64,000 nucleotides of DNA, from positions 8,138-72,137 of the forward strand of contig JAUVVY010000019.1 of NCBI GenBank assembly GCA_030604405.1. Direction: 5' to 3'. The translations under genes were made by a program, and so were the position numbers. Source of the DNA: a bacterium. Lineage in GTDB: Bacteria > Armatimonadota > Zipacnadia > Zipacnadales > UBA11051. This document shows, piece after piece, positions 528 through 8,507 of this stretch (position 1 is the stretch's first letter; each line of letters begins with the position of its first letter). Under the pieces are notes generated by a model that saw only the letters and a program-made list of their open reading frames with translations, searched no databases and was not told the origin of the DNA.

Positions 528-774
528 CTAGATCGCCTCCTGGATTGAATACGTTCGTCCGGCTAGATGATTTCTGCAAGAGCTATGGGATTACCTGCAA
601 TGTGGGGTGTTGGCAGCAAATCCGGGGCCGCGAGTAGGCCGGAACTATGATAGAACTTTTGCAATAGAAATGAGCAGAAATGCGAAAAACGCAACTAAAC
701 AAGGATTCGGTTGAATGGGAGAAGAACAATAGGGCAACAAGTATTTTGCGGCTGGCAGTGAGGGGAAGTCACGT

Positions 775-1707
775 ATGCAAGCGCGCTGGGGGCGAAGCAG
801 GTCTCCCGTGGAATCTGACCCGCTGTCGCGTGTTGTCACAGAGCGATGGCGTCGGCCCGGAAGCCTTATGGGGCTTTGCCTGTGGCGCGTTTTGCTCGTT
901 GTCGGTATCTCAAGCGCGTTGCCGGTCTGGGCGCAAAACGGTTCCGGAGCCAGGCGGCCAAGCGGCGTAGTCCCCGACATGTTCAGGCTTTCTCCCGCCA
1001 TTCCCGGAACCTCAGAATATGAAATGCGGCAGAGGGCCTCTGAGTTGGAGGCCGTGCTGGCCGACCTGGATGCGATCGTCTCGGCGCGAGTAAGCCTGCG
1101 GCAGGCAACCGGTGAGGGCGAGGCACCTGCAGCCGCCGTGCAACTCGAACTTACCGCGGACGCAGCGTGGTCGGCGCAACTTTCGCAGACCGTTGTGGCC
1201 CTTGTCAGTCAGCTTGAGCCGGAACTAACCCTGGAAGCAATCCTCATCACAGACAGACAAGGGCGCGTTCTGTTTGACAAGGGCCGCATTGCCACGGCTC
1301 CCGATCCCGCGCCGCAACCCCAGCCGACGGCGCTGGTACAGACGCTATCGGGGCCGGTGGCAATTGCCGTGGGCCTGGCACTGGGCCTGGTCGTCGTGCT
1401 TGGTTGGTGGTTGTTCGGAGCCAGGCCGGCTTTACGGGTGCGTGGACAGCCGTCGGCCCCGGAGGGCCCGTGGACATTCCTCGCCACTGTCGAACGCTCT
1501 AAGCTCAAGCGCGTGCTGAGGGCGCAGCGTCCCGAGCTTATCGGTGCGATCGCGGCTCAACTCGATGACCGCACCGCCGCACGCCTGCGGCCGGTGCTGA
1601 GAGCTCTTGACCATACGGCGATACCCGCGCCGGATCGGGCGATACACCCTGAAATAGCAGACGCCTTGGCAGTCAAAATCAGGCAGATGCTTGCGGAAGA
1701 GGAATAG
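775..1707 (+). CDS. Miniature FliF/SctJ-type ring-building domain + TM helix + FliG middle-domain fusion protein
   Basis: N-terminal hydrophobic/signal segment; ELEAVLADLDAIVSARVSL...PAAAVQLEL...VVALVSQLEPELTLEAILITDRQGRVL matches RBM2; TM VAIAVGLALGLVVVLGWWLF; PWTFLATVERSKLKRVLRAQRPELIGAIAAQL...IHPE matches FliG-M; occupies the fliF-fliG position before fliH. Confidence 0.75.
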   Translation: MQARWGRSRSPVESDPLSRVVTERWRRPGSLMGLCLWRVLLVVGISSALPVWAQNGSGARRPSGVVPDMFRLSPAIPGTSEYEMRQRASELEAVLADLDAIVSARVSLRQATGEGEAPAAAVQLELTADAAWSAQLSQTVVALVSQLEPELTLEAILITDRQGRVLFDKGRIATAPDPAPQPQPTALVQTLSGPVAIAVGLALGLVVVLGWWLFGARPALRVRGQPSAPEGPWTFLATVERSKLKRVLRAQRPELIGAIAAQLDDRTAARLRPVLRALDHTAIPAPDRAIHPEIADALAVKIRQMLAEEE

Positions 1708-1725
1708 TAGGTAAGAAGAGGGGGG

Positions 1726-2343
1726 TTGCAATTGCCTCGTGTTTTCAAGGCCGATGAACTACCCGAAGGCGGTCGCATCAGGCCCTTAGGAAAAACGTTG
1801 ACGGAAGCGACCAAGGAGCCGGAAGCGAGAACGCAAGCGGAGCCGCAGCCTGCCGAGCCGGCAGTAGAAGCGGCACGAGTAGAGCCACATCCCCCGCAGG
1901 TGTCGGCGGATAGCCTCGAGCGCGTCCAGCGCCTCCTACACGAAGTTGTCGCCAGCTTCGGCCGGCAGCGTAATCAACTGCTCCAGCAGCTCAAACCTGG
2001 GCTGGCGAAGCTGGTAATCGCCGTGGCGCGGCAGATCGTAGGGCGCGAACTGAGCGCCGATGAAGACGCGATCAAGCGGGTGATGGACACTGCGCTTGCG
2101 GAGCTGGGTCGCTCGGGCCGCGTCGTCGCCCGGGTCAGCCCGGAAGATGCGCCGGTTCTGCGCGAAGCGATCGAGCAGGATCAGTGGGCGCCGCCGCCGA
2201 TGGTCGAACTCGAAATCGTCGCCGATGCCTCCGTGACCAGAGGCGGGTGTGTGCTGGAAAGCGATTACGGGCAGGTTGATGCGACTATTGAGACGCAGAT
2301 CGCTGAACTGGCCAGGCTTTTGGACAATAGCGAAAACCAATAG
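1726..2343 (+). CDS. fliH: Flagellar/T3SS ATPase stator FliH/SctL (start TTG 1726 or 1732)
   Basis: C-terminal VARVSPED...IVADASVTRGGCVLESDYGQVDATIETQ; directly upstream of fliI. Confidence 0.9.
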   Translation: MQLPRVFKADELPEGGRIRPLGKTLTEATKEPEARTQAEPQPAEPAVEAARVEPHPPQVSADSLERVQRLLHEVVASFGRQRNQLLQQLKPGLAKLVIAVARQIVGRELSADEDAIKRVMDTALAELGRSGRVVARVSPEDAPVLREAIEQDQWAPPPMVELEIVADASVTRGGCVLESDYGQVDATIETQIAELARLLDNSENQ

Positions 2344-2358
2344 ACTTAGGGGATCAAG

Positions 2359-3729
2359 TTGAGCGCGCGGCGCGACACGACAGTTGAGATTGACTTCGGC
2401 AACTGGCTGGCGGAGCGGACGGCCAAGGTGCAACAGGGCCGGCACTTTCGCAGGCTGGGCACCGTGCAGGAGATCGTCGGCTTGACCATGGTCTCTCAGG
2501 GGCCACCGGCGCAGGTGGGGGAGACCTGCTATATCAAGCCGGCGATGGACCGGCCCACCGTCTGCGCGCAGGTGGTCGGGTTCCGCGACAGCCGGGTGCT
2601 GCTAATGCCGTTGGGCGACACCCGTGGCATCCAGCCCGGCTGCGAGGTAGTGGCAAGCGGCGAGCAGCTCTCCGTGCCGGTCGGGCCGGAGTTGCTGGGC
2701 CGCGTCATCGACGGGTTTGGCGCACCGCTGGACGGACGTGGTCCGCTGGATGCCGCGCGTCGCCGCAGGATATATGCCGATGCGCCGCGGCCGATGGAGA
2801 GGACCAGGATGACGCAGCCGATGTATCTTGGCGTCCGCGCCATTGATGCTTTGCTGACCTGCGCCAAGGGCCAGCGGGTGGGTATCTTTGCGGGCAGCGG
2901 CCTGGGCAAGAGCGTGCTGCTGGGGATGATCGCGCGCAACAGCAGCGCCGATGTCAATGTTATCGCGCTGGTGGGCGAACGCGGCCGGGAGGTGCTGGAC
3001 TTCGTCGAAGATAAAATGGGCCCGGCGCTGGAGCGTTCGGTCGTAGTGGTCGCGACCGCCGACGAGCCCGCTCTGATCCGCTTGCAGGCCGGTTTTGCCG
3101 CCACAACAATAGCCGAGGAATTCCGCGACCAGGGCGCTCATGTGATGCTGATGATGGATTCTATTACCCGGCTGGCGCGGGCGCAGCGGGAAGTGGGGCT
3201 GGCCGCGGGCGAGGTTCCGGCCAATCGCGGCTTCCCGCCTTCGGTTTACGCGATGATACCGACCCTGGTGGAGCGGGCCGGGCCGTCAGCAGACGGGACC
3301 ATCACAGGCATGTACACGGTGCTGGTCGAGGGCGATGACATGCTTGAGCCGGTGGCTGATACGGTGCGCGCCACTCTCGACGGCCATATCGTGCTGTCGC
3401 GGGACCTGGCTGAAAAGGGCCGGTATCCTGCCATAGATGTCAATGCGAGCATCTCGCGCTCGATGGTGCAGGTGGTGGACGAAGCGCACTGGGAGCTGAG
3501 TGAAACGGCGCGCCGGCTGCTGCGGACATACGCCGACATCGAGGACCTGGTTGCCGTCGGCGCCTACGAGGCAGGCGGCGACCCCTGGGTGGATGTGGCC
3601 GTGGCCATCAACCCGCAGATGCGGGAATTCCTGAGCCAGGGCATTGAGGAACAGGCTGACCCGGTTGATGCGCTGACGCGTCTGCAGCAACTGATTAGGG
3701 CCGCCGAAGAAATTATCGGCGGCAGGTGA
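2359..3729 (+). CDS. fliI: Type III export ATPase FliI/SctN
   Basis: Walker A GIFAGSGLGKS, VGERGREV, Walker B LMMDSITR, LDGHIVLSR, YPAIDV. Confidence 0.97.
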   Translation: MSARRDTTVEIDFGNWLAERTAKVQQGRHFRRLGTVQEIVGLTMVSQGPPAQVGETCYIKPAMDRPTVCAQVVGFRDSRVLLMPLGDTRGIQPGCEVVASGEQLSVPVGPELLGRVIDGFGAPLDGRGPLDAARRRRIYADAPRPMERTRMTQPMYLGVRAIDALLTCAKGQRVGIFAGSGLGKSVLLGMIARNSSADVNVIALVGERGREVLDFVEDKMGPALERSVVVVATADEPALIRLQAGFAATTIAEEFRDQGAHVMLMMDSITRLARAQREVGLAAGEVPANRGFPPSVYAMIPTLVERAGPSADGTITGMYTVLVEGDDMLEPVADTVRATLDGHIVLSRDLAEKGRYPAIDVNASISRSMVQVVDEAHWELSETARRLLRTYADIEDLVAVGAYEAGGDPWVDVAVAINPQMREFLSQGIEEQADPVDALTRLQQLIRAAEEIIGGR

Positions 3730-3736
3730 TGAGCTC

Positions 3737-4177
3737 TTGAAAGAAGCCAGCAGGCTTGCGCGTCTGGCCAGACACTTCGCGATGGAGCACAAGCGGCTTG
3801 AGCTCGCAAAGCGGGCCTCTGAGACGGCCATGCGCCGGGTACAAGCGCGTCAGAGACGCTTGGCCGCCGAGCAGACCACGGCTGCGGAGGCCGAGCCGCC
3901 GCGCAGAAACGCCGTGGCATGGATTAGGTGGCGCGGAGCCTACCTGGACAGGACAGGCAATCAGAGCAAACGGCTTGCCGCCAGCCAGGAGCAGCTCAGG
4001 ATCGCCCTGGCGCTGCAGAACAGACGCCTGGTGCGAAGCTCGGGCCGCCAGCGCGGAATAGAAAAGCTGCTGGCTGCTGCGCACAGCGCCGAGCAAGGAC
4101 GCGTCGAAAGTATGCAGCAGGCTGAGGCCGACCAGCGCGCCGGCATATCGCGCCTCGGAAGAGACGATGTGATATGA
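3737..4177 (+). CDS. fliJ: FliJ/SctO-like coiled-coil stalk protein
   Basis: 146 aa, helical, directly after fliI; C-terminal EQGRVESMQQAEADQRA resembles the FliJ EQxxxDE motif. Confidence 0.65.
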   Translation: MKEASRLARLARHFAMEHKRLELAKRASETAMRRVQARQRRLAAEQTTAAEAEPPRRNAVAWIRWRGAYLDRTGNQSKRLAASQEQLRIALALQNRRLVRSSGRQRGIEKLLAAAHSAEQGRVESMQQAEADQRAGISRLGRDDVI

Positions 4178-5037
4178 AACAGACAACTGAGACTGTGCGG
4201 CCGCTTGCGATGCCACGCGCCGACGCGCCCGGACATCTGGACCGGCTAGTTCTGCAGCGCTGGGCCGAGCGCATGGCCGCAGCATGTGGGCCCGAGCTTG
4301 CACAAAGAGCCGCCCTTCCCGCCCGCCAAATCAACTGCACAGCCAGCGTCCTGCCCAGCGGCGAGCAGTGGCAGCACCCGCCCGACGCAGCATGGCTGGC
4401 GGTGCAGTGGGGTCCGGTTCCCGGCCGGATCGCCATCCCAATGCCACTGGCGGTCTCTCTGGTGGCGCGGTGCCTGGGATATGATAGCTGCTCTGAACAG
4501 CCGCTTGCTGCCCTCGATTACGAGGTGCTCATCGTGTGGCTGCGGCCGGTGCTGAACTGGATGCAGGAGACGGCCAACCTGCGTGACCGCGCGACACTGA
4601 GCGCTGCCGAAGCCGACCTCGAAACACTTGGCAGCGGGCCGGCGGTGCTGTTGAGCATTTCCATGACCGTGGGAGCCGTCCGGGGGACGTGGCAGTTGGT
4701 AGTGCCGTGGGAGGCACTGCGCGAGCAACTGCGCGTCGAGGCCGCGCTGCGTGGAGGTCGGGTGAGAGCGGAGGTGGCGGCTCTGGGCGGCCTGCCAGTG
4801 ACTGTCGAGGCGATCATCAGCGGCGGCACGCTGGCGCTTCGTGAGAGCTTTGAACTGGAAGTGGGTGATGTGATAGCTCTCGATTGTGACCTGACCACCG
4901 CCGTAGAACTGCGGGTCGGCAGTCAAGCCGTGGCGGTGGGCAGACTGGGAAGCCATGAGGCGCAATGGGCCGTGCGTATAAGCGAGATGCAATGGCGTAC
5001 AAGTGCCCGGAGCACTGAGGAGGCAAGCAATGACTGA
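4174..5037 (+). CDS. fliM: FliM/SctQ-like C-ring protein with C-terminal SPOA domain
   Basis: C-terminal VTVEAIISGGTLALRESFELEVGDVIALD...GRLG...AVRI is SPOA-like; middle CheC-like region; precedes fliN. Confidence 0.8.
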   Translation: MKQTTETVRPLAMPRADAPGHLDRLVLQRWAERMAAACGPELAQRAALPARQINCTASVLPSGEQWQHPPDAAWLAVQWGPVPGRIAIPMPLAVSLVARCLGYDSCSEQPLAALDYEVLIVWLRPVLNWMQETANLRDRATLSAAEADLETLGSGPAVLLSISMTVGAVRGTWQLVVPWEALREQLRVEAALRGGRVRAEVAALGGLPVTVEAIISGGTLALRESFELEVGDVIALDCDLTTAVELRVGSQAVAVGRLGSHEAQWAVRISEMQWRTSARSTEEASND

Positions 5038-5359
5038 CGAAAACGATCCCAACGAGGGAGCGAGTGGCAGTGAGGGTGCCGACAGTGAAAGCAGTGCGCT
5101 GAGTTCTGTGGTGCTGGCGGCTCTGGGCGATATGTCGCTTGCGGTGGAGGTGCGCGTAGGTAGTGCGAAGATCAGCCTGCGGGAGCTCCTGGACTGCACG
5201 CCGGGGACAGTCCTGGCGCTTGACGCTCCCGTCGGGGGACTGGTTGACCTGCTGGTTGGCGGTCAGCTTGTGGCACGCGGCGAGTTGGTCGCAATCGACT
5301 CGCAGGTTGGGCTGCGGATCGTAGAGATCGTCACGGAGGGCGGCAGCAATGAGGCCTAA
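5030..5359 (+). CDS. fliN: FliN (SPOA domain) C-ring protein
   Basis: DMSLAVEVRVGSAKISLRELLDCTPGTVLALD...VDLLVGGQLVARGELVAIDSQVGLRIVEI; ATG 5030 with GGAGG RBS. Confidence 0.92.
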   Translation: MTDENDPNEGASGSEGADSESSALSSVVLAALGDMSLAVEVRVGSAKISLRELLDCTPGTVLALDAPVGGLVDLLVGGQLVARGELVAIDSQVGLRIVEIVTEGGSNEA

Positions 5360-5720
5360 AACCCACACAGTCATCATTTTGCTGCTCAGTGCAGCGCCCG
5401 CCTGGTGCCAAGTTGACACGCCGCTGTCCGCCCACGAGCCGACCTACCATCTGCTCCGCGCGCTGGCCAGTCTGCTGATCGTCATCGTCTTGATTCTTCT
5501 CACCTACTATGCTCTGAAGAAGCTGTCGTGGCCTGCGCCCGGCGCGCTCACCGAAGGGCCGCTTGAACTGCTGCAGGTTTTGCCCGTGGGGCCGGGCCGG
5601 CGCATCTATCTAATCGGCCTGAAGGGGCGCGCCTACGTCATCGCATGGTCACAGGAAAGTGTCGCGCTTATAGGCGAATTGGAAAGGTCAGAGGTTGATG
5701 AGCAGCTCCCTGACGGCTAA
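5349..5720 (+). CDS. fliO: FliO export gate assembly protein
   Basis: Signal + single TM followed by LELLQVLPVGPGRRIYLIGL...IGEL; between fliN and fliP. Confidence 0.85.
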   Translation: MRPKTHTVIILLLSAAPAWCQVDTPLSAHEPTYHLLRALASLLIVIVLILLTYYALKKLSWPAPGALTEGPLELLQVLPVGPGRRIYLIGLKGRAYVIAWSQESVALIGELERSEVDEQLPDG

Positions 5721-6441
5721 GGCGCGGGTGCTACAGGGCGCACTTCTGACTGCGGCCTGTGGGCTGCTTGCCCAGCCAGTAGCGGCCCAGGAAGGGATCA
5801 GCATTGATTTCGGGTCCGGGGAGTCGGGAAGCTACGCGCGACTGCTCTTGCTGTTTGCCGCCATCGCGCTGGCCCCGGCGGTGCTGGCCGTCGTCACCAG
5901 CTTCGCCCGCATCGCGATCGTCCTTTTCTTTATGCGCGCCGGCCTCGGGGCCAACGACATCCCGCCGACCGTGGTGATTATTGGCCTGGCCATTTTCCTC
6001 ACCGTCTTCACCATGGCTCCGCAGATGGAGCAAGCCTATTCCAAGGCGATCGCCCCTTATCTGGCCGGCGAGTTGGAGCTGGATGGGGCCAGCAGCATCT
6101 TTGTGGAAGAACTGCGGGGGTACATGGGCGCGCACACTCGCCCGGCTGATTTGGCCGTGTTCGAGGAATTCAGGCCGGAGCGGGCTGCGGATCAGGCAGT
6201 GCCGATGGGCACGCTCGTGCCCGCCTTCATCATCAGCGAGCTACGCGCCGCCTTCCTGATCGGCTTTATCATCTACCTGCCGTTTCTGGTCATAGACCTG
6301 GTGGTGGGCAGCACGCTGGCGTCAGTGGGATTGGTCAGCTTGCCCGCGCCGGCCATCGCTTTGCCGTTCAAGGTGCTGCTTTTCGTGATGGTGGACGGCT
6401 GGGCGCTGCTGACGCAGTCGCTGCTGGCGACGATACTCTAG
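5698..6441 (+). CDS. fliP: Export gate protein FliP/SctR
   Basis: VTSFARIAIV, IPP, LVPAFIISELRAAFLIGFIIYLPFLVIDLVV, LPFKVLLFVMVDGW. Confidence 0.95.
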   Translation: MSSSLTAKARVLQGALLTAACGLLAQPVAAQEGISIDFGSGESGSYARLLLLFAAIALAPAVLAVVTSFARIAIVLFFMRAGLGANDIPPTVVIIGLAIFLTVFTMAPQMEQAYSKAIAPYLAGELELDGASSIFVEELRGYMGAHTRPADLAVFEEFRPERAADQAVPMGTLVPAFIISELRAAFLIGFIIYLPFLVIDLVVGSTLASVGLVSLPAPAIALPFKVLLFVMVDGWALLTQSLLATIL

Positions 6442-7274
6442 GGTATGTAGTCCATGACAATGTGGAATCGCAGCAGGCTACCGGCCAGCCGGAATTCGAG
6501 GTCTATATCTTTCATGACCGGCCCATGATTCGCGGCCACATCGGTATTGACTGTCCCAGTGCATGCGCCCTGTTCGCCCTGAAAGTTAATCGTGGCCTGC
6601 ATAGTCTGTACGCAGGTCACCCACTCAACGTCCGTACCGGTGCCTGCAATGTTTTCAGGGAGCCGGTACTGTACCTTGAAGTTTGTCGTAGTGCCACTGA
6701 GCGTGTCGTTGTTGGAGTAAAACGGTATCGTGGTCAGCGGCACGGAATGAGTCGCTGCACGGCCGGTAATTACGGGATTGCGCAAGAATGGTCGGTTGTC
6801 GGACACCGGTGTGGGTATGGCCGTGGGCGGGCCTGAGGCTGTTCGTACTGTGTGGTTGGCAATGCCGTCGCCATCAGTGTCATAGGAAGCGAAGTATTCG
6901 TTCCAATCGCGTAGGCCGCCTTGAGTAGATGAGAACAGATAACCGAGGTATTGACCCAGCCGAGAGGCGGGGTCCAAGCCAACATCCGGCACCGCAATTT
7001 CGGGGAAGTCGTCTGTTATGGTCGCGATCTGGATCAGACTGCCGCCGGTGCCCGGAACGACATCAGTCACCTGGCGGGTGGATTGCTCGCTCGCGGTGAC
7101 AGTCTGGTTCCCATAGTAAGTCGTGACATCCATTTGATAATTCCATCGGGTGCCTAGTGCCGTCGGCAAGAAATCGCCCTCCAGGCTGTGGTATGGAATG
7201 CCCCGTCCGCCACAGCCGCTAAGTGCAACTATTGCAATGATGGCACACAAGATCAAAATGGTCGCAGCACGCAT
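6438..7274 (-). CDS. Hypothetical lipoprotein inserted antisense between fliP and fliQ
   Basis: Signal peptide with lipobox LSGC; RBS AGGAGG; beta-rich polar mature part; own promoter. Confidence 0.8.
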   Translation of the reverse strand: MRAATILILCAIIAIVALSGCGGRGIPYHSLEGDFLPTALGTRWNYQMDVTTYYGNQTVTASEQSTRQVTDVVPGTGGSLIQIATITDDFPEIAVPDVGLDPASRLGQYLGYLFSSTQGGLRDWNEYFASYDTDGDGIANHTVRTASGPPTAIPTPVSDNRPFLRNPVITGRAATHSVPLTTIPFYSNNDTLSGTTTNFKVQYRLPENIAGTGTDVEWVTCVQTMQATINFQGEQGACTGTVNTDVAANHGPVMKDIDLEFRLAGSLLRFHIVMDYIP

Positions 7275-7326
7275 GGCGACCTCCTAATAAGAAACAAGTT
7301 GCTGCCCACTGGTGGTGACTGTTACA

Positions 7327-7355
7327 ATTATGGCACATGGGGGAATAATCGTCAA
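7327..7355 (-). promoter_or_regulatory. Putative sigma70 promoter for the lipoprotein gene
   Basis: Minus strand TTGACG-N17-CATAAT. Confidence 0.6.
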
Positions 7356-7414
7356 CTTGCATGACCCGTGTCGGCCCATATCCCGGCAGCATTTCGGGAG
7401 GGAGTTGATGCGTC

Positions 7415-7684
7415 ACGAACGCTACCGAAGCGGTTGAGTTGTTGCGCCACGTGTTGTTGATCGGGCTCTATCTGTCTTTGCCGCCTATGGTGGCGGCGGC
7501 GCTGGCGGGATTTGCCGTGGGACTGCTGCAGTCGGCTACCGGTCAAAACGACCAGGCCGTGTCTTTCGTTCCGCGCATCCTGGCCGCCGGTGCCGCTGTC
7601 ATGGTCTTCGGTATGTGGTTAATCTCTCTGGCTACCGACTTCTGGTACAGATTGTGGACCAGCCTGCCTGAACTGGTGCGATAG
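7415..7684 (+). CDS. fliQ: Export gate protein FliQ/SctS (start uncertain: ACG 7415 or TTG 7439)
   Basis: LSLPPMVAAALAGFAVGLLQSATGQNDQAVSFVPRI resembles FliQ QAxTQIQEQTLxFVPK; precedes fliR. Confidence 0.88.
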   Translation, partial: TNATEAVELLRHVLLIGLYLSLPPMVAAALAGFAVGLLQSATGQNDQAVSFVPRILAAGAAVMVFGMWLISLATDFWYRLWTSLPELVR

Positions 7685-7696
7685 GGCTAATTCGCT

Positions 7697-8434
7697 ATGC
7701 CACAGCTATTTGACGCAGTGCCACTTTGGGGACTTGTATTTGCCCGCGTCGCCGGCATCGCCCTGTTGGTCCCACCGATCGGCTTGCAGCATGTGCCGAT
7801 TACTATCAGGATTGCCGCCGCCGGCATCATATCCGTGCCGCTCTACTACACCGCGGGCGGCTTGGAGGCAGCCGTCCCGGGCTTGGGCACCTACACGCTA
7901 TGGGTGGCAAAGAACCTGGCAGTCGGTCTGATAATCGGCGGGGCGGTAGCTTTGGTCTTGTGGGCCGCCGTGATGGCCGGCACGTATCTGGAGAGGCTGG
8001 CCGGCTGGTCGTCGCCAACGCCCCAGGCAGGCATCGCCAGCTCACTGTTGTATCTGCTCTGCGCGGTTCTTTTTGTGCTAATAGACGGCCACCACGCCGT
8101 ATTTCGGGTCGTGGCAGCCTCATTTGAGAGCGTCCCACCCGGGCCGGGGTCATGGGCCGCATTGGCCGAGCGAGCCCTGCTGCTGTTGCCTGCGAGGATG
8201 TTCCTCGTGTCATTGATGATCGCCGCGCCAGCGTTGCTAGCCGCCTTGTTGGCGATGACGCTGCTAGCCGCGGCGGAGCGGGTGTCGCTGGAGCTGGCGG
8301 CGAGCGGAATCAGCCGCATCACAGCGCCGCTGTTGGTAACCGTCGCGCTGATCGCCGCTCTGCCGGCAGTAGCTTATGTCGCGCTCTGGCAACTGCAGGT
8401 GATGTTGAATCAGGTCGCGGCCCTGCTGGGTTAG
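7697..8434 (+). CDS. fliR: Export gate protein FliR/SctT
   Basis: LVFARVAG...PP...VP..IRI, AG...DGHHAV...SFE..PPG, L.IAAP; about 245 aa, hydrophobic. Confidence 0.9.
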   Translation: MPQLFDAVPLWGLVFARVAGIALLVPPIGLQHVPITIRIAAAGIISVPLYYTAGGLEAAVPGLGTYTLWVAKNLAVGLIIGGAVALVLWAAVMAGTYLERLAGWSSPTPQAGIASSLLYLLCAVLFVLIDGHHAVFRVVAASFESVPPGPGSWAALAERALLLLPARMFLVSLMIAAPALLAALLAMTLLAAAERVSLELAASGISRITAPLLVTVALIAALPAVAYVALWQLQVMLNQVAALLG

Positions 8435-8507
8435 CAGGGCGGCCGTGTGTGGTGCGGTCGGCGTTGCAGGCCGAACACTTTCGTCGCACTTCGTAACGAG
8501 GCCGATT

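Follow-up and report, generated by a model that had tools for sequence, protein, structure and literature searches.

The flagellar type III gate exports FlgM and thereby frees FliA, and its methionine (Met) gasket has been described as an adaptation to the very rapid export of subunits. In insect endosymbionts such as Buchnera, reduced flagellar gene sets reportedly retain the export apparatus, for which a role in protein export has been proposed, after the loss of flagellin, together with rod, hook and basal-body ring genes, and are said to result from the recent reduction of an only flagellar system. Among non-flagellar type III secretion systems (T3SS), the passages of Herrou et al. 2025 (PMC12075869) on the "needleless" T3SS* of Myxococcus xanthus describe a sorting platform and an inner-membrane export apparatus without secretin, needle and translocon genes, which works with the Kil Tad-like pilus; a preprint on FliO, in its part on operons, places FliO homologues in non-flagellar T3SS operons of Myxococcota. 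In Armatimonadota, the study naming Zipacnadia treats T3SS genes as flagellar in its passages on them, and our literature searches on T3SS, FliP, FlhB and remnants in Zipacnadia and Armatimonadota returned no description of a second, filament-less T3SS in the phylum. Here we analyze a stretch of 64,000 nucleotides from a genome of this phylum (GenBank assembly GCA_030604405.1, contig JAUVVY010000019.1, forward-strand positions 8,138 to 72,137; the window), in which a cluster of export genes encodes a FliPQR gate with altered seals. An earlier note on this DNA had called the seals of FliP and FliR degenerate and had implicitly placed them in the gate of a flagellum. We propose that the cluster, which we term type B, probably encodes a working, differently gated, filament-less type III exporter derived from the flagellum and found in one order of Armatimonadota.

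With regard to the FliP seal, the passages of Husing 2021 (PMC8239009) on the Met-rich loop (M-loop) give Met at positions 1 and 3 in 99% of ~2500 FliPs, state that position 1 tolerates medium hydrophobic residues only, and describe export function as scaling with Met count. Rare Met-poor homologues, treated there as flagellar, are said in the same passages to "remain to be investigated". The FliP of the window, which is the sole FliP of its genome in a profile scan, carries L213-V214-S215 (6331-6339) in place of MMM and Ala for an upstream Met, as seen in a gapless HMMER alignment to Salmonella FliP (6f2d_A, E 3.6e-45) in which glvslp lies over gmmmvp and the flanking motifs, such as ialpfk, are retained. 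Hence, the replacement of the loop Met residues between conserved flanks at 6313-6351, from which the earlier note had started, is confirmed. The note had also read the MTSF motif as VTSF, which is correct but not peculiar, since among the 150 best representatives MTSF occurs 44, LTSF 19 and VTSF 12 times. Against the NCBIfam equivalog TIGR01103 the protein scores 203.3 bits, under the cut-off of 217.45, and SctR models score lower still (111-162 bits).

For the plug of FliR, the relevant passages of Husing 2021 (PMC8239009) report poor conservation, and leakage without loss of motility upon deletion. Aligned to Vibrio FliR (6s3l_F), the FliR of the window shows gaps of 2+1+3+1 = 7 residues in the plug loop, the ...vdp... 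stretch is gone, and the segment between two conserved helices comprises 63 residues, compared with 70 in Vibrio and in 16 of 16 FliRs of the canonical flagellar type (type A, defined below). The missing plug and the shortening by about 7 residues at 7976-8038, stated in the earlier note against a consensus, are thus found by alignment as well. FliQ is also altered: in an ungapped alignment to Salmonella FliQ, offset by 8 residues, Asp38 (7550-7552) occupies the position of Glu46, Gln39 that of Met47 and Arg46 that of Lys54. The parallel change proposed for two proteins is therefore real and wider in scope, as FliP, FliR and FliQ change together.

The FliQ substitution has a precedent. According to the passages of Husing 2021 (PMC8239009) on suppressors, FliQ E46D arose as a suppressor of a GGG M-loop and improved the small-residue M-loop variants GGG, AAA and SSS; the legend of Fig. 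7 states that natural Asp46 correlates with variant M-loops. We found the same pairing in plasmid-borne systems, where SctR with a Met-poor loop goes with SctS Asp (Pantoea sp., MQM; Mycetohabitans endofungorum, LNQ) and SctR with a Met-rich loop with SctS Glu (Aeromonas MMM, Shigella MMM, Leisingera AMM). Judged from these sequences, the co-variation of M-loop and Asp46 seems to hold outside flagella too.

A Pfam scan for FliP in 41 genomes of the same order gave two score classes, at ~256-283 and ~195-226 bits, often both in one genome. The high-scoring class is the canonical Met-rich FliP (type A), and the low-scoring class, to which the FliP of the window belongs, is type B. Type-A loops read ...LMSMGM[MLF]M..., all 23 loci having Met at both positions 1 and 3; type-B loops read L[AT]S[VIL]G[LM][LVI][SGTAN]..., with Met at positions 2 or 3 in none of 23. 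Position 1 in type B is Leu in 19 and Met in 4 of the 23 loci, and position 2 is V, L or I in most. The other gate subunits separate along the same line. Asp at the Glu46 position of FliQ is present in 23/23 type-B and 3/3 type-C rows (type C being a third FliP, see below) and in 2/19 type-A rows, whereas Met at the following position occurs in 14/19 type-A rows and in none of the 26 rows of types B and C; the FliQ salt-bridge pair is retained in type B as Asp-Arg/Lys. The FliR segment measures 60-67 residues in all 23 type-B rows against 70 in all 16 type-A rows, and FlhB frames have ~240-280 amino acids (aa) in type B versus 365-404 aa in type A where complete. All 23 type-B loci thus share the gate changes in FliP, FliQ and FliR. 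Given how cleanly the two paralogue groups separate in sequence, these changes are not a product of chance.

We also asked of metagenomes whether loops of this kind are common in motile flagellar systems, which the earlier note had named as a counter-argument; a single one of 80 unselected metagenome FliPs carries such a loop, so that loops of this kind are rare. The underlying scan, made with P0098, retrieved only relatives of ~50% identity, 79 of 80 with Met at loop position 1. The one Met-less locus (L223, IIT) combines Glu in FliQ with what looks like a normal flagellar neighborhood, for which reason we rejected the general rule that a Met-less loop marks a filament-less system. Two further groups were noticed alongside. 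Type C, a more divergent FliP of another family (G022, G016, G032), has the loop G-P-A/T-T-F-S without a hydrophobic triplet, and two of its three genomes gave no flagellin or rod/hook match. A second, separate FliP clade without Met at position 1 comprises P0048, P0062, P0098 and P0105 (LTM, LAN, LAG, LSG), with scores exceeding the cut-off of the fliP equivalog.

A FastTree phylogeny of 268 FliPs places types B and C, together with one metagenome protein, in a starred clade distinct from type A. When the loop columns were removed and a site-heterogeneous model was used in a quick search, a 99* branch parted the B+C clade from 61 other FliPs including type A. With six plasmid SctR sequences as outgroup, the SctR sequences group at 100*, separate from every FliP including type B, and the B+C clade (97*) falls in a polytomy on the flagellar side. 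By its FliP sequence, type B is thus of flagellar type and did not arise by recent duplication of the resident flagellar gene; it may be either an old paralogue or the product of a transfer.

The gene content of the genome (4.37 Mb, 96 contigs, 96.9% complete; cluster on contig C43) argues against a flagellum, the premise implicit in the earlier note. Profile searches of the genome gave no match to flagellin (PF00669), the rod/hook C-terminal family Flg_bbr_C (PF06429), the rod N-terminal family Flg_bb_rod (PF00460) FliE (PF02049) or FliG (PF01706, FliG_C), for all of which control genomes were positive; nor is there room for a FliG gene between the ring gene and fliH. FlhA is the sole FHIPEP match of the genome. 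FlhB matches profile positions 3-236 of 335 (Pfam Bac_export_2), so that the C-terminal autocleaving switch domain is gone, and a profile search of the genome found no other FlhB pieces. FlhB probably starts at Met22 (8508) and would then comprise 242 aa, the stop of its gene overlaps the start of flhA, and its four nearest database relatives have 212-243 aa; a search of the PDB gave no direct match, the sequence being too divergent. No secretin lies in the cluster, and none of the 9 secretin-family matches of the genome is on contig C43. By these sequence criteria the cluster is not a flagellum, and the premise was wrong.

Type B is moreover maintained where flagellar genes are not found. Nine of the 41 genomes, from seven genera, carry type B (7: G000, G006, G011, G012, G023, G033, G037) or type C (2: G016, G032) without a type-A FliP, flagellin or rod/hook match, and in at least 16 genomes type B coexists with a complete flagellar FliP. 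Of 45 genomes sampled from the order, 27 match a type-B FliP profile at 334-385 bits, and the best score of this profile in the rest of the phylum (356 sampled genomes) is 261 bits. The 13-gene order is kept across families. All 13 cluster frames of the window are intact, and the ratio of non-synonymous to synonymous substitution rates (dN/dS, Nei-Gojobori) between the window and four congeners is 0.04-0.40 over all cluster genes, with 0.08-0.14 for FliP, 0.04-0.15 for FliQ, 0.17-0.24 for FliR and 0.21-0.25 for FlhB; the neighboring SurA gene, as a control, gives 0.14-0.25. The apparent split of the type-B FliP in G004 is a scaffold gap, and in the flagellated relative G009 (C64:2500-6000) the type-B FliP changes frame near residue 172-197, a frameshift that is either a pseudogene or an assembly error.

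The regulatory pair of the flagellar checkpoint is retained as well. FliA lies above the TIGR02479 cut-off, and the genome of the window encodes a FlgM of 98 aa (PF04316, 69.6 bits, cut-off 25) directly behind a TAAAGTT-N12-GCCGATAT site; the congener G006 shows the same arrangement of sigma-28-like site and FlgM. All 5 of the other type-B-only genomes examined carry FlgM, and none of 5 same-order genomes lacking FliP altogether does. The retention of FlgM with type B suggests that the type-B gate may export at least FlgM. Two other sigma-28-like sites with the -35 element TAAAGTT were noted, ahead of a 48-aa hydrophobic membrane open reading frame (ORF; G000:C32:3249, minus strand) and of a DUF6812 protein (G000:C6:64563, plus strand), and both proteins are possible members of a FliA regulon as predicted from these sites. 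A link to a pilus through a sigma-28-like site near a secretin operon was discarded, as this weak site sits within pilM and its -10 element is poor.

We mapped the cluster by an ORF map with Pfam and NCBIfam profile scans (Table 1). It runs from 775 to 12009 on the plus strand as one co-directional set of 13 genes in the order ring protein, FliHI, FliJ position, FliMN, FliOPQR, FlhB, FlhA and FliA. FliA closes the cluster in 19 of 38 tabulated loci, and most other loci end before that point.

Table 1. Features of the type-B export cluster and its vicinity, in window coordinates.
Feature	Position	Strand	Basis
Upstream motif AACAAGGATTCG	698..709	+	Common to 5/7 same-genus upstream regions, ahead of first cluster gene
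Short FliF/SctJ-like ring protein, 310 aa	775..1707	+	Pfam YscJ_FliF 26.8 bits, residues 85-167; no NCBIfam match
FliH/SctL stator protein	1726..2343	+	Pfam FliH 84.6 bits; HrpE/YscL and FliH NCBIfam models, all under cut-off
FliI/SctN export ATPase	2359..3729	+	TIGR01026 fliI_yscN 571.8 bits (cut-off 379.5); Pfam ATP-synt_ab, T3SS_ATPase_C
FliJ/SctO-position gene, 146 aa	3737..4177	+	Named by position alone; no Pfam or NCBIfam match
Short FliM/SctQ-like protein, 287 aa	4174..5037	+	Pfam FliMN_C 48.7 bits, C-terminal domain only recognized; TIGR01397 fliM 38.4 bits (cut-off 219.6), residues 158-271 only
FliN	5003..5359	+	Pfam FliMN_C 69.5 bits
FliO	5349..5720	+	Pfam FliO 30.4 bits; TIGR03500 44.1 bits, under 55.25 cut-off
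FliP pore subunit, type B	5695..6441	+	Pfam FliP (PF00813) 213.8 bits (cut-off 26.9), profile positions 2-191 of 191
FliP M-loop region TLASVGLVSLPAP, T207-P219	6313..6351	+	Aligned with FliP structures of Salmonella, Vibrio and Pseudomonas
Lipoprotein-like ORF, 278 aa, signal peptide ending ...LSGC	6438..7274	-	ORF map; between fliP and fliQ
FliQ	7439..7684	+	Pfam Bac_export_3 59.5 bits
FliR, type B	7697..8434	+	Pfam Bac_export_1 91.1 bits; PDB 6s3l_F E 5.4e-06
Shortened FliR plug loop AGTYLERLAGWSSPTPQAGIA, A94-A114	7976..8038	+	7 residues fewer than Vibrio FliR (6s3l_F)
FlhB, membrane domain only	8445..9236	+	Pfam Bac_export_2; 263-aa ORF
FlhA, full length including cytoplasmic domain	9233..11245	+	Pfam FHIPEP 392.6 bits, profile positions 3-655 of 657
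FliA/WhiG-family sigma factor, last cluster gene	11242..12009	+	TIGR02479 251.6 bits (cut-off 189.6)

The frames of the cluster without an assignment are the FliJ-position gene, which has orthologues in 8 type-B loci of the locus table, and the opposite-strand lipoprotein-like ORF, which divides the cluster into two transcription units. This ORF has no Pfam or NCBIfam match, is listed in the protein atlas only as "hypothetical protein", is kept at the same place in the loci of the window's family and is absent from those of other families. Its dN/dS of 0.21-0.30 indicates purifying selection; it is an uncertain member of the export system. The ring protein has, as judged by eye, an N-terminal hydrophobic segment, one ring-building domain and a second hydrophobic segment at ~193-213. 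The remaining ~95 aa (residues ~215-310) form a cytoplasmic tail without a family match, which could substitute for the missing FliG and contact the FliM/FliN platform. The upstream motif AACAAGGATTCG occurs once in the 4.37-Mb genome, hence no regulon was found through it; it may be the site of a dedicated regulator. A comparison of the flanks of type-B loci across families found no further shared gene. Upstream of the window, the contig carries unrelated genes, including two adjacent ankyrin-repeat proteins (155 and 196 aa) on the minus strand, ~0.45-1.5 kb upstream of the first base of the window and ~1.2 kb upstream of the first cluster gene. Ankyrin repeats are frequent in proteins acting on eukaryotic partners.

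We thus propose that type B has kept FliHI and the FliJ-position gene, a short FliM with FliN, a minimal ring protein, FliOPQR-FlhA, the membrane domain of FlhB and a FliA of its own, and would have shed FliG, FliE, rod, hook, filament and the substrate-switch domain of FlhB. Its gate appears to have been remodelled as a unit, with L/M-V/L/I-S/G/T/A/N for MMM in FliP, Asp in FliQ and a FliR loop shortened by 3-10 residues. The earlier note had left the choice between a constitutively open and a differently gated pore. The latter is favored because a whole paralogue clade shares the altered residues and keeps them under purifying selection, and because hydrophobic loop positions 1-2 are kept while the Glu-to-Asp change in FliQ matches the GGG suppressor of Husing 2021; the altered gate seems adapted rather than decayed. 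The pore would still be sealed, by a smaller hydrophobic constriction and tighter packing of FliQ. Since no filament is built, very rapid export of subunits would no longer be demanded of the gate, which could be tuned for low throughput. Cargo would cross the inner membrane into the periplasm or some outer conduit. FlgM is the one candidate cargo that can be named, and its export would couple the gate to FliA-dependent transcription.

Several observations weigh against this proposal. All genomes are metagenome bins, 66-98% complete (G013 only 66%), so that the absence of flagellar genes means that they were not found and is not proof; indeed, G002 lacks type-A FliP and flagellin, yet has 4 rod/hook matches, which illustrates that incomplete bins can mislead on this point. 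The frameshift in G009 suggests that some flagellated hosts may do without the system. The deep placement of FliP is a polytomy from a quick tree search in which six plasmid SctR sequences represented the non-flagellar systems. Two small RNA runs from the probable source study yielded no sequence on the cluster, and a run whose RNA nature is a guess yielded short contigs over parts of it, which we do not use as evidence. The genome scan with a sigma-28 consensus gave few sites, 4 strict (~1 expected by a rough estimate) and 22 relaxed, of which only that of flgM is convincing, and no candidate cargo other than FlgM was found. Finally, in the passages of Husing 2021 (PMC8239009) on Salmonella, assembly is almost lost when all three Met are replaced by other residues, and E46D raised the leakage of small-residue loops; by analogy, the natural combination of loop and Asp could be leaky.

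Other readings of the locus account for part of these data. The one that survives best, albeit a rather unlikely one in our view, holds that type B is a membrane platform and not mainly an exporter, either the base of a nanotube-like or "hat-like" inner-membrane structure made of flagellar core proteins or a signaling device with FlgM as its sole substrate. Kaplan et al. 2022 report an inner-membrane structure that is widespread and connected with core proteins of the flagellar T3SS, and cite reports of T3SS relatives in nanotube formation, and FlgM is indeed the only candidate cargo that we found. However, an ATPase complex, a full-length FlhA with its cytoplasmic docking domain, and FliM/FliN are all kept under purifying selection, which argues for active substrate handling, and we found no link to nanotubes.

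A constitutively open or leaky pore, acting as a permanent conduit for ions or small molecules, would follow from the disappearance of the Met residues and of the bulky plug, but it is unlikely and the data do not support it. The periplasmic end of FliPQR may, as structural work is said to indicate, stay closed without a rod. Loop positions 1-2 remain hydrophobic, and the salt-bridge pair of FliQ is kept as Asp-Arg/Lys. Furthermore, a permanently open pore should be costly and therefore fits poorly with residues that are fixed across families under purifying selection. The passages of Husing 2021 (PMC8239009) on leakage speak for both sides: Salmonella plug deletions and small-residue M-loops leak, the more so with E46D, yet a leaky pore causes a growth defect.

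It is very improbable that type B is an accessory or alternative gate which serves the type-A flagellum and uses its rod, hook and filament proteins. Both clusters occur in many genomes with a FliA-type sigma factor near each, as this would predict; it gives no account, however, of the 7 type-B-only genomes without flagellin or rod/hook matches, that of the window included, and type B has neither a FliG to hold a motor nor the FlhB C-domain that orders the export of rod, hook and filament. That the cluster is the decaying remnant of a lost second flagellum, whose seal residues drift without export, is hardly credible and largely refuted, for although the genome lacks all axial genes, FlhB is truncated, one copy is frameshifted (G009) and all equivalog scores of one NCBIfam scan, those of FliM, FliO and FliP among them, fall under their cut-offs, the 13 frames are intact under a dN/dS like that of the housekeeping neighbor, the gene set and the FlhB truncation recur in several families, type B is kept in 7 genomes in which no flagellum genes were found and beside a flagellar FliP in at least 16, and the "degenerate" residues are themselves conserved.

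The reading of type B as a filament-less exporter can be carried further, if only tentatively: it is possible, though doubtful, that type B is an ancient third use of the type III machine beside flagellum and injectisome, moving FlgM and further cargo across the inner membrane only, without FlhB switch or Met gasket. If so, the Met gasket and the bulky plug would be adapted to fast export into a long, open channel and would not be required for type III export as such, and gate function would need no more of FlhB than its membrane domain. As a filament-less exporter, type B would be a natural minimal type III system, with an alternative gate and without rod, hook or switch domain, in which the gate features needed for translocation could be told from those needed for high-speed sealing and the role of the FlhB membrane domain alone could be studied. 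It is a conserved, self-contained export module that survives where flagellum genes were not found. For annotation, reading FliPQR, FlhA and FliI as "flagellar motility" would over-call motility in these Armatimonadota.

Compared with the flagellar gate FliPQR-FlhAB of Salmonella (6f2d) and Vibrio (6s3l), type B shares the protein families, the fliOPQR-flhBA order and the FliP hallmark motifs, groups with the flagellar and not the SctR side of the tree, and retains FliA and FlgM. It differs in the absence of the Met gasket, the shorter FliR plug loop, Asp for Glu in FliQ, an FlhB without C-terminal domain, a ring protein of 310 aa with one recognized ring-building domain, and in that FliG, FliE, rod, hook and filament were not found. 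An injectisome does not fit either, as FliP is not of SctR type in the quick tree with six plasmid SctR sequences and the cluster holds no secretin. Unlike the reduced sets of the Buchnera type, type B would be an old paralogue, and in many relatives it stands beside a complete flagellum.

The published architecture that comes closest, as far as the passages of Herrou et al. 2025 on the T3SS* describe it, is that of Myxococcus, which resembles type B in its combination of sorting platform and export apparatus without a secretin in the cluster. This likeness is one of architecture only: type B groups with flagellar FliPs and carries FliA and FlgM, and no pilus link was found. With the rare natural M-loop variants in the relevant passages of Husing 2021 (PMC8239009), type B has in common the non-Met loop, the polar third residue and the Asp of FliQ, but here these features belong to a whole paralogous system without a flagellum, with a short plug and a truncated FlhB. 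Of the Met-poor FliP homologues left open in those passages, at least the type-B set would thus not be flagellar.

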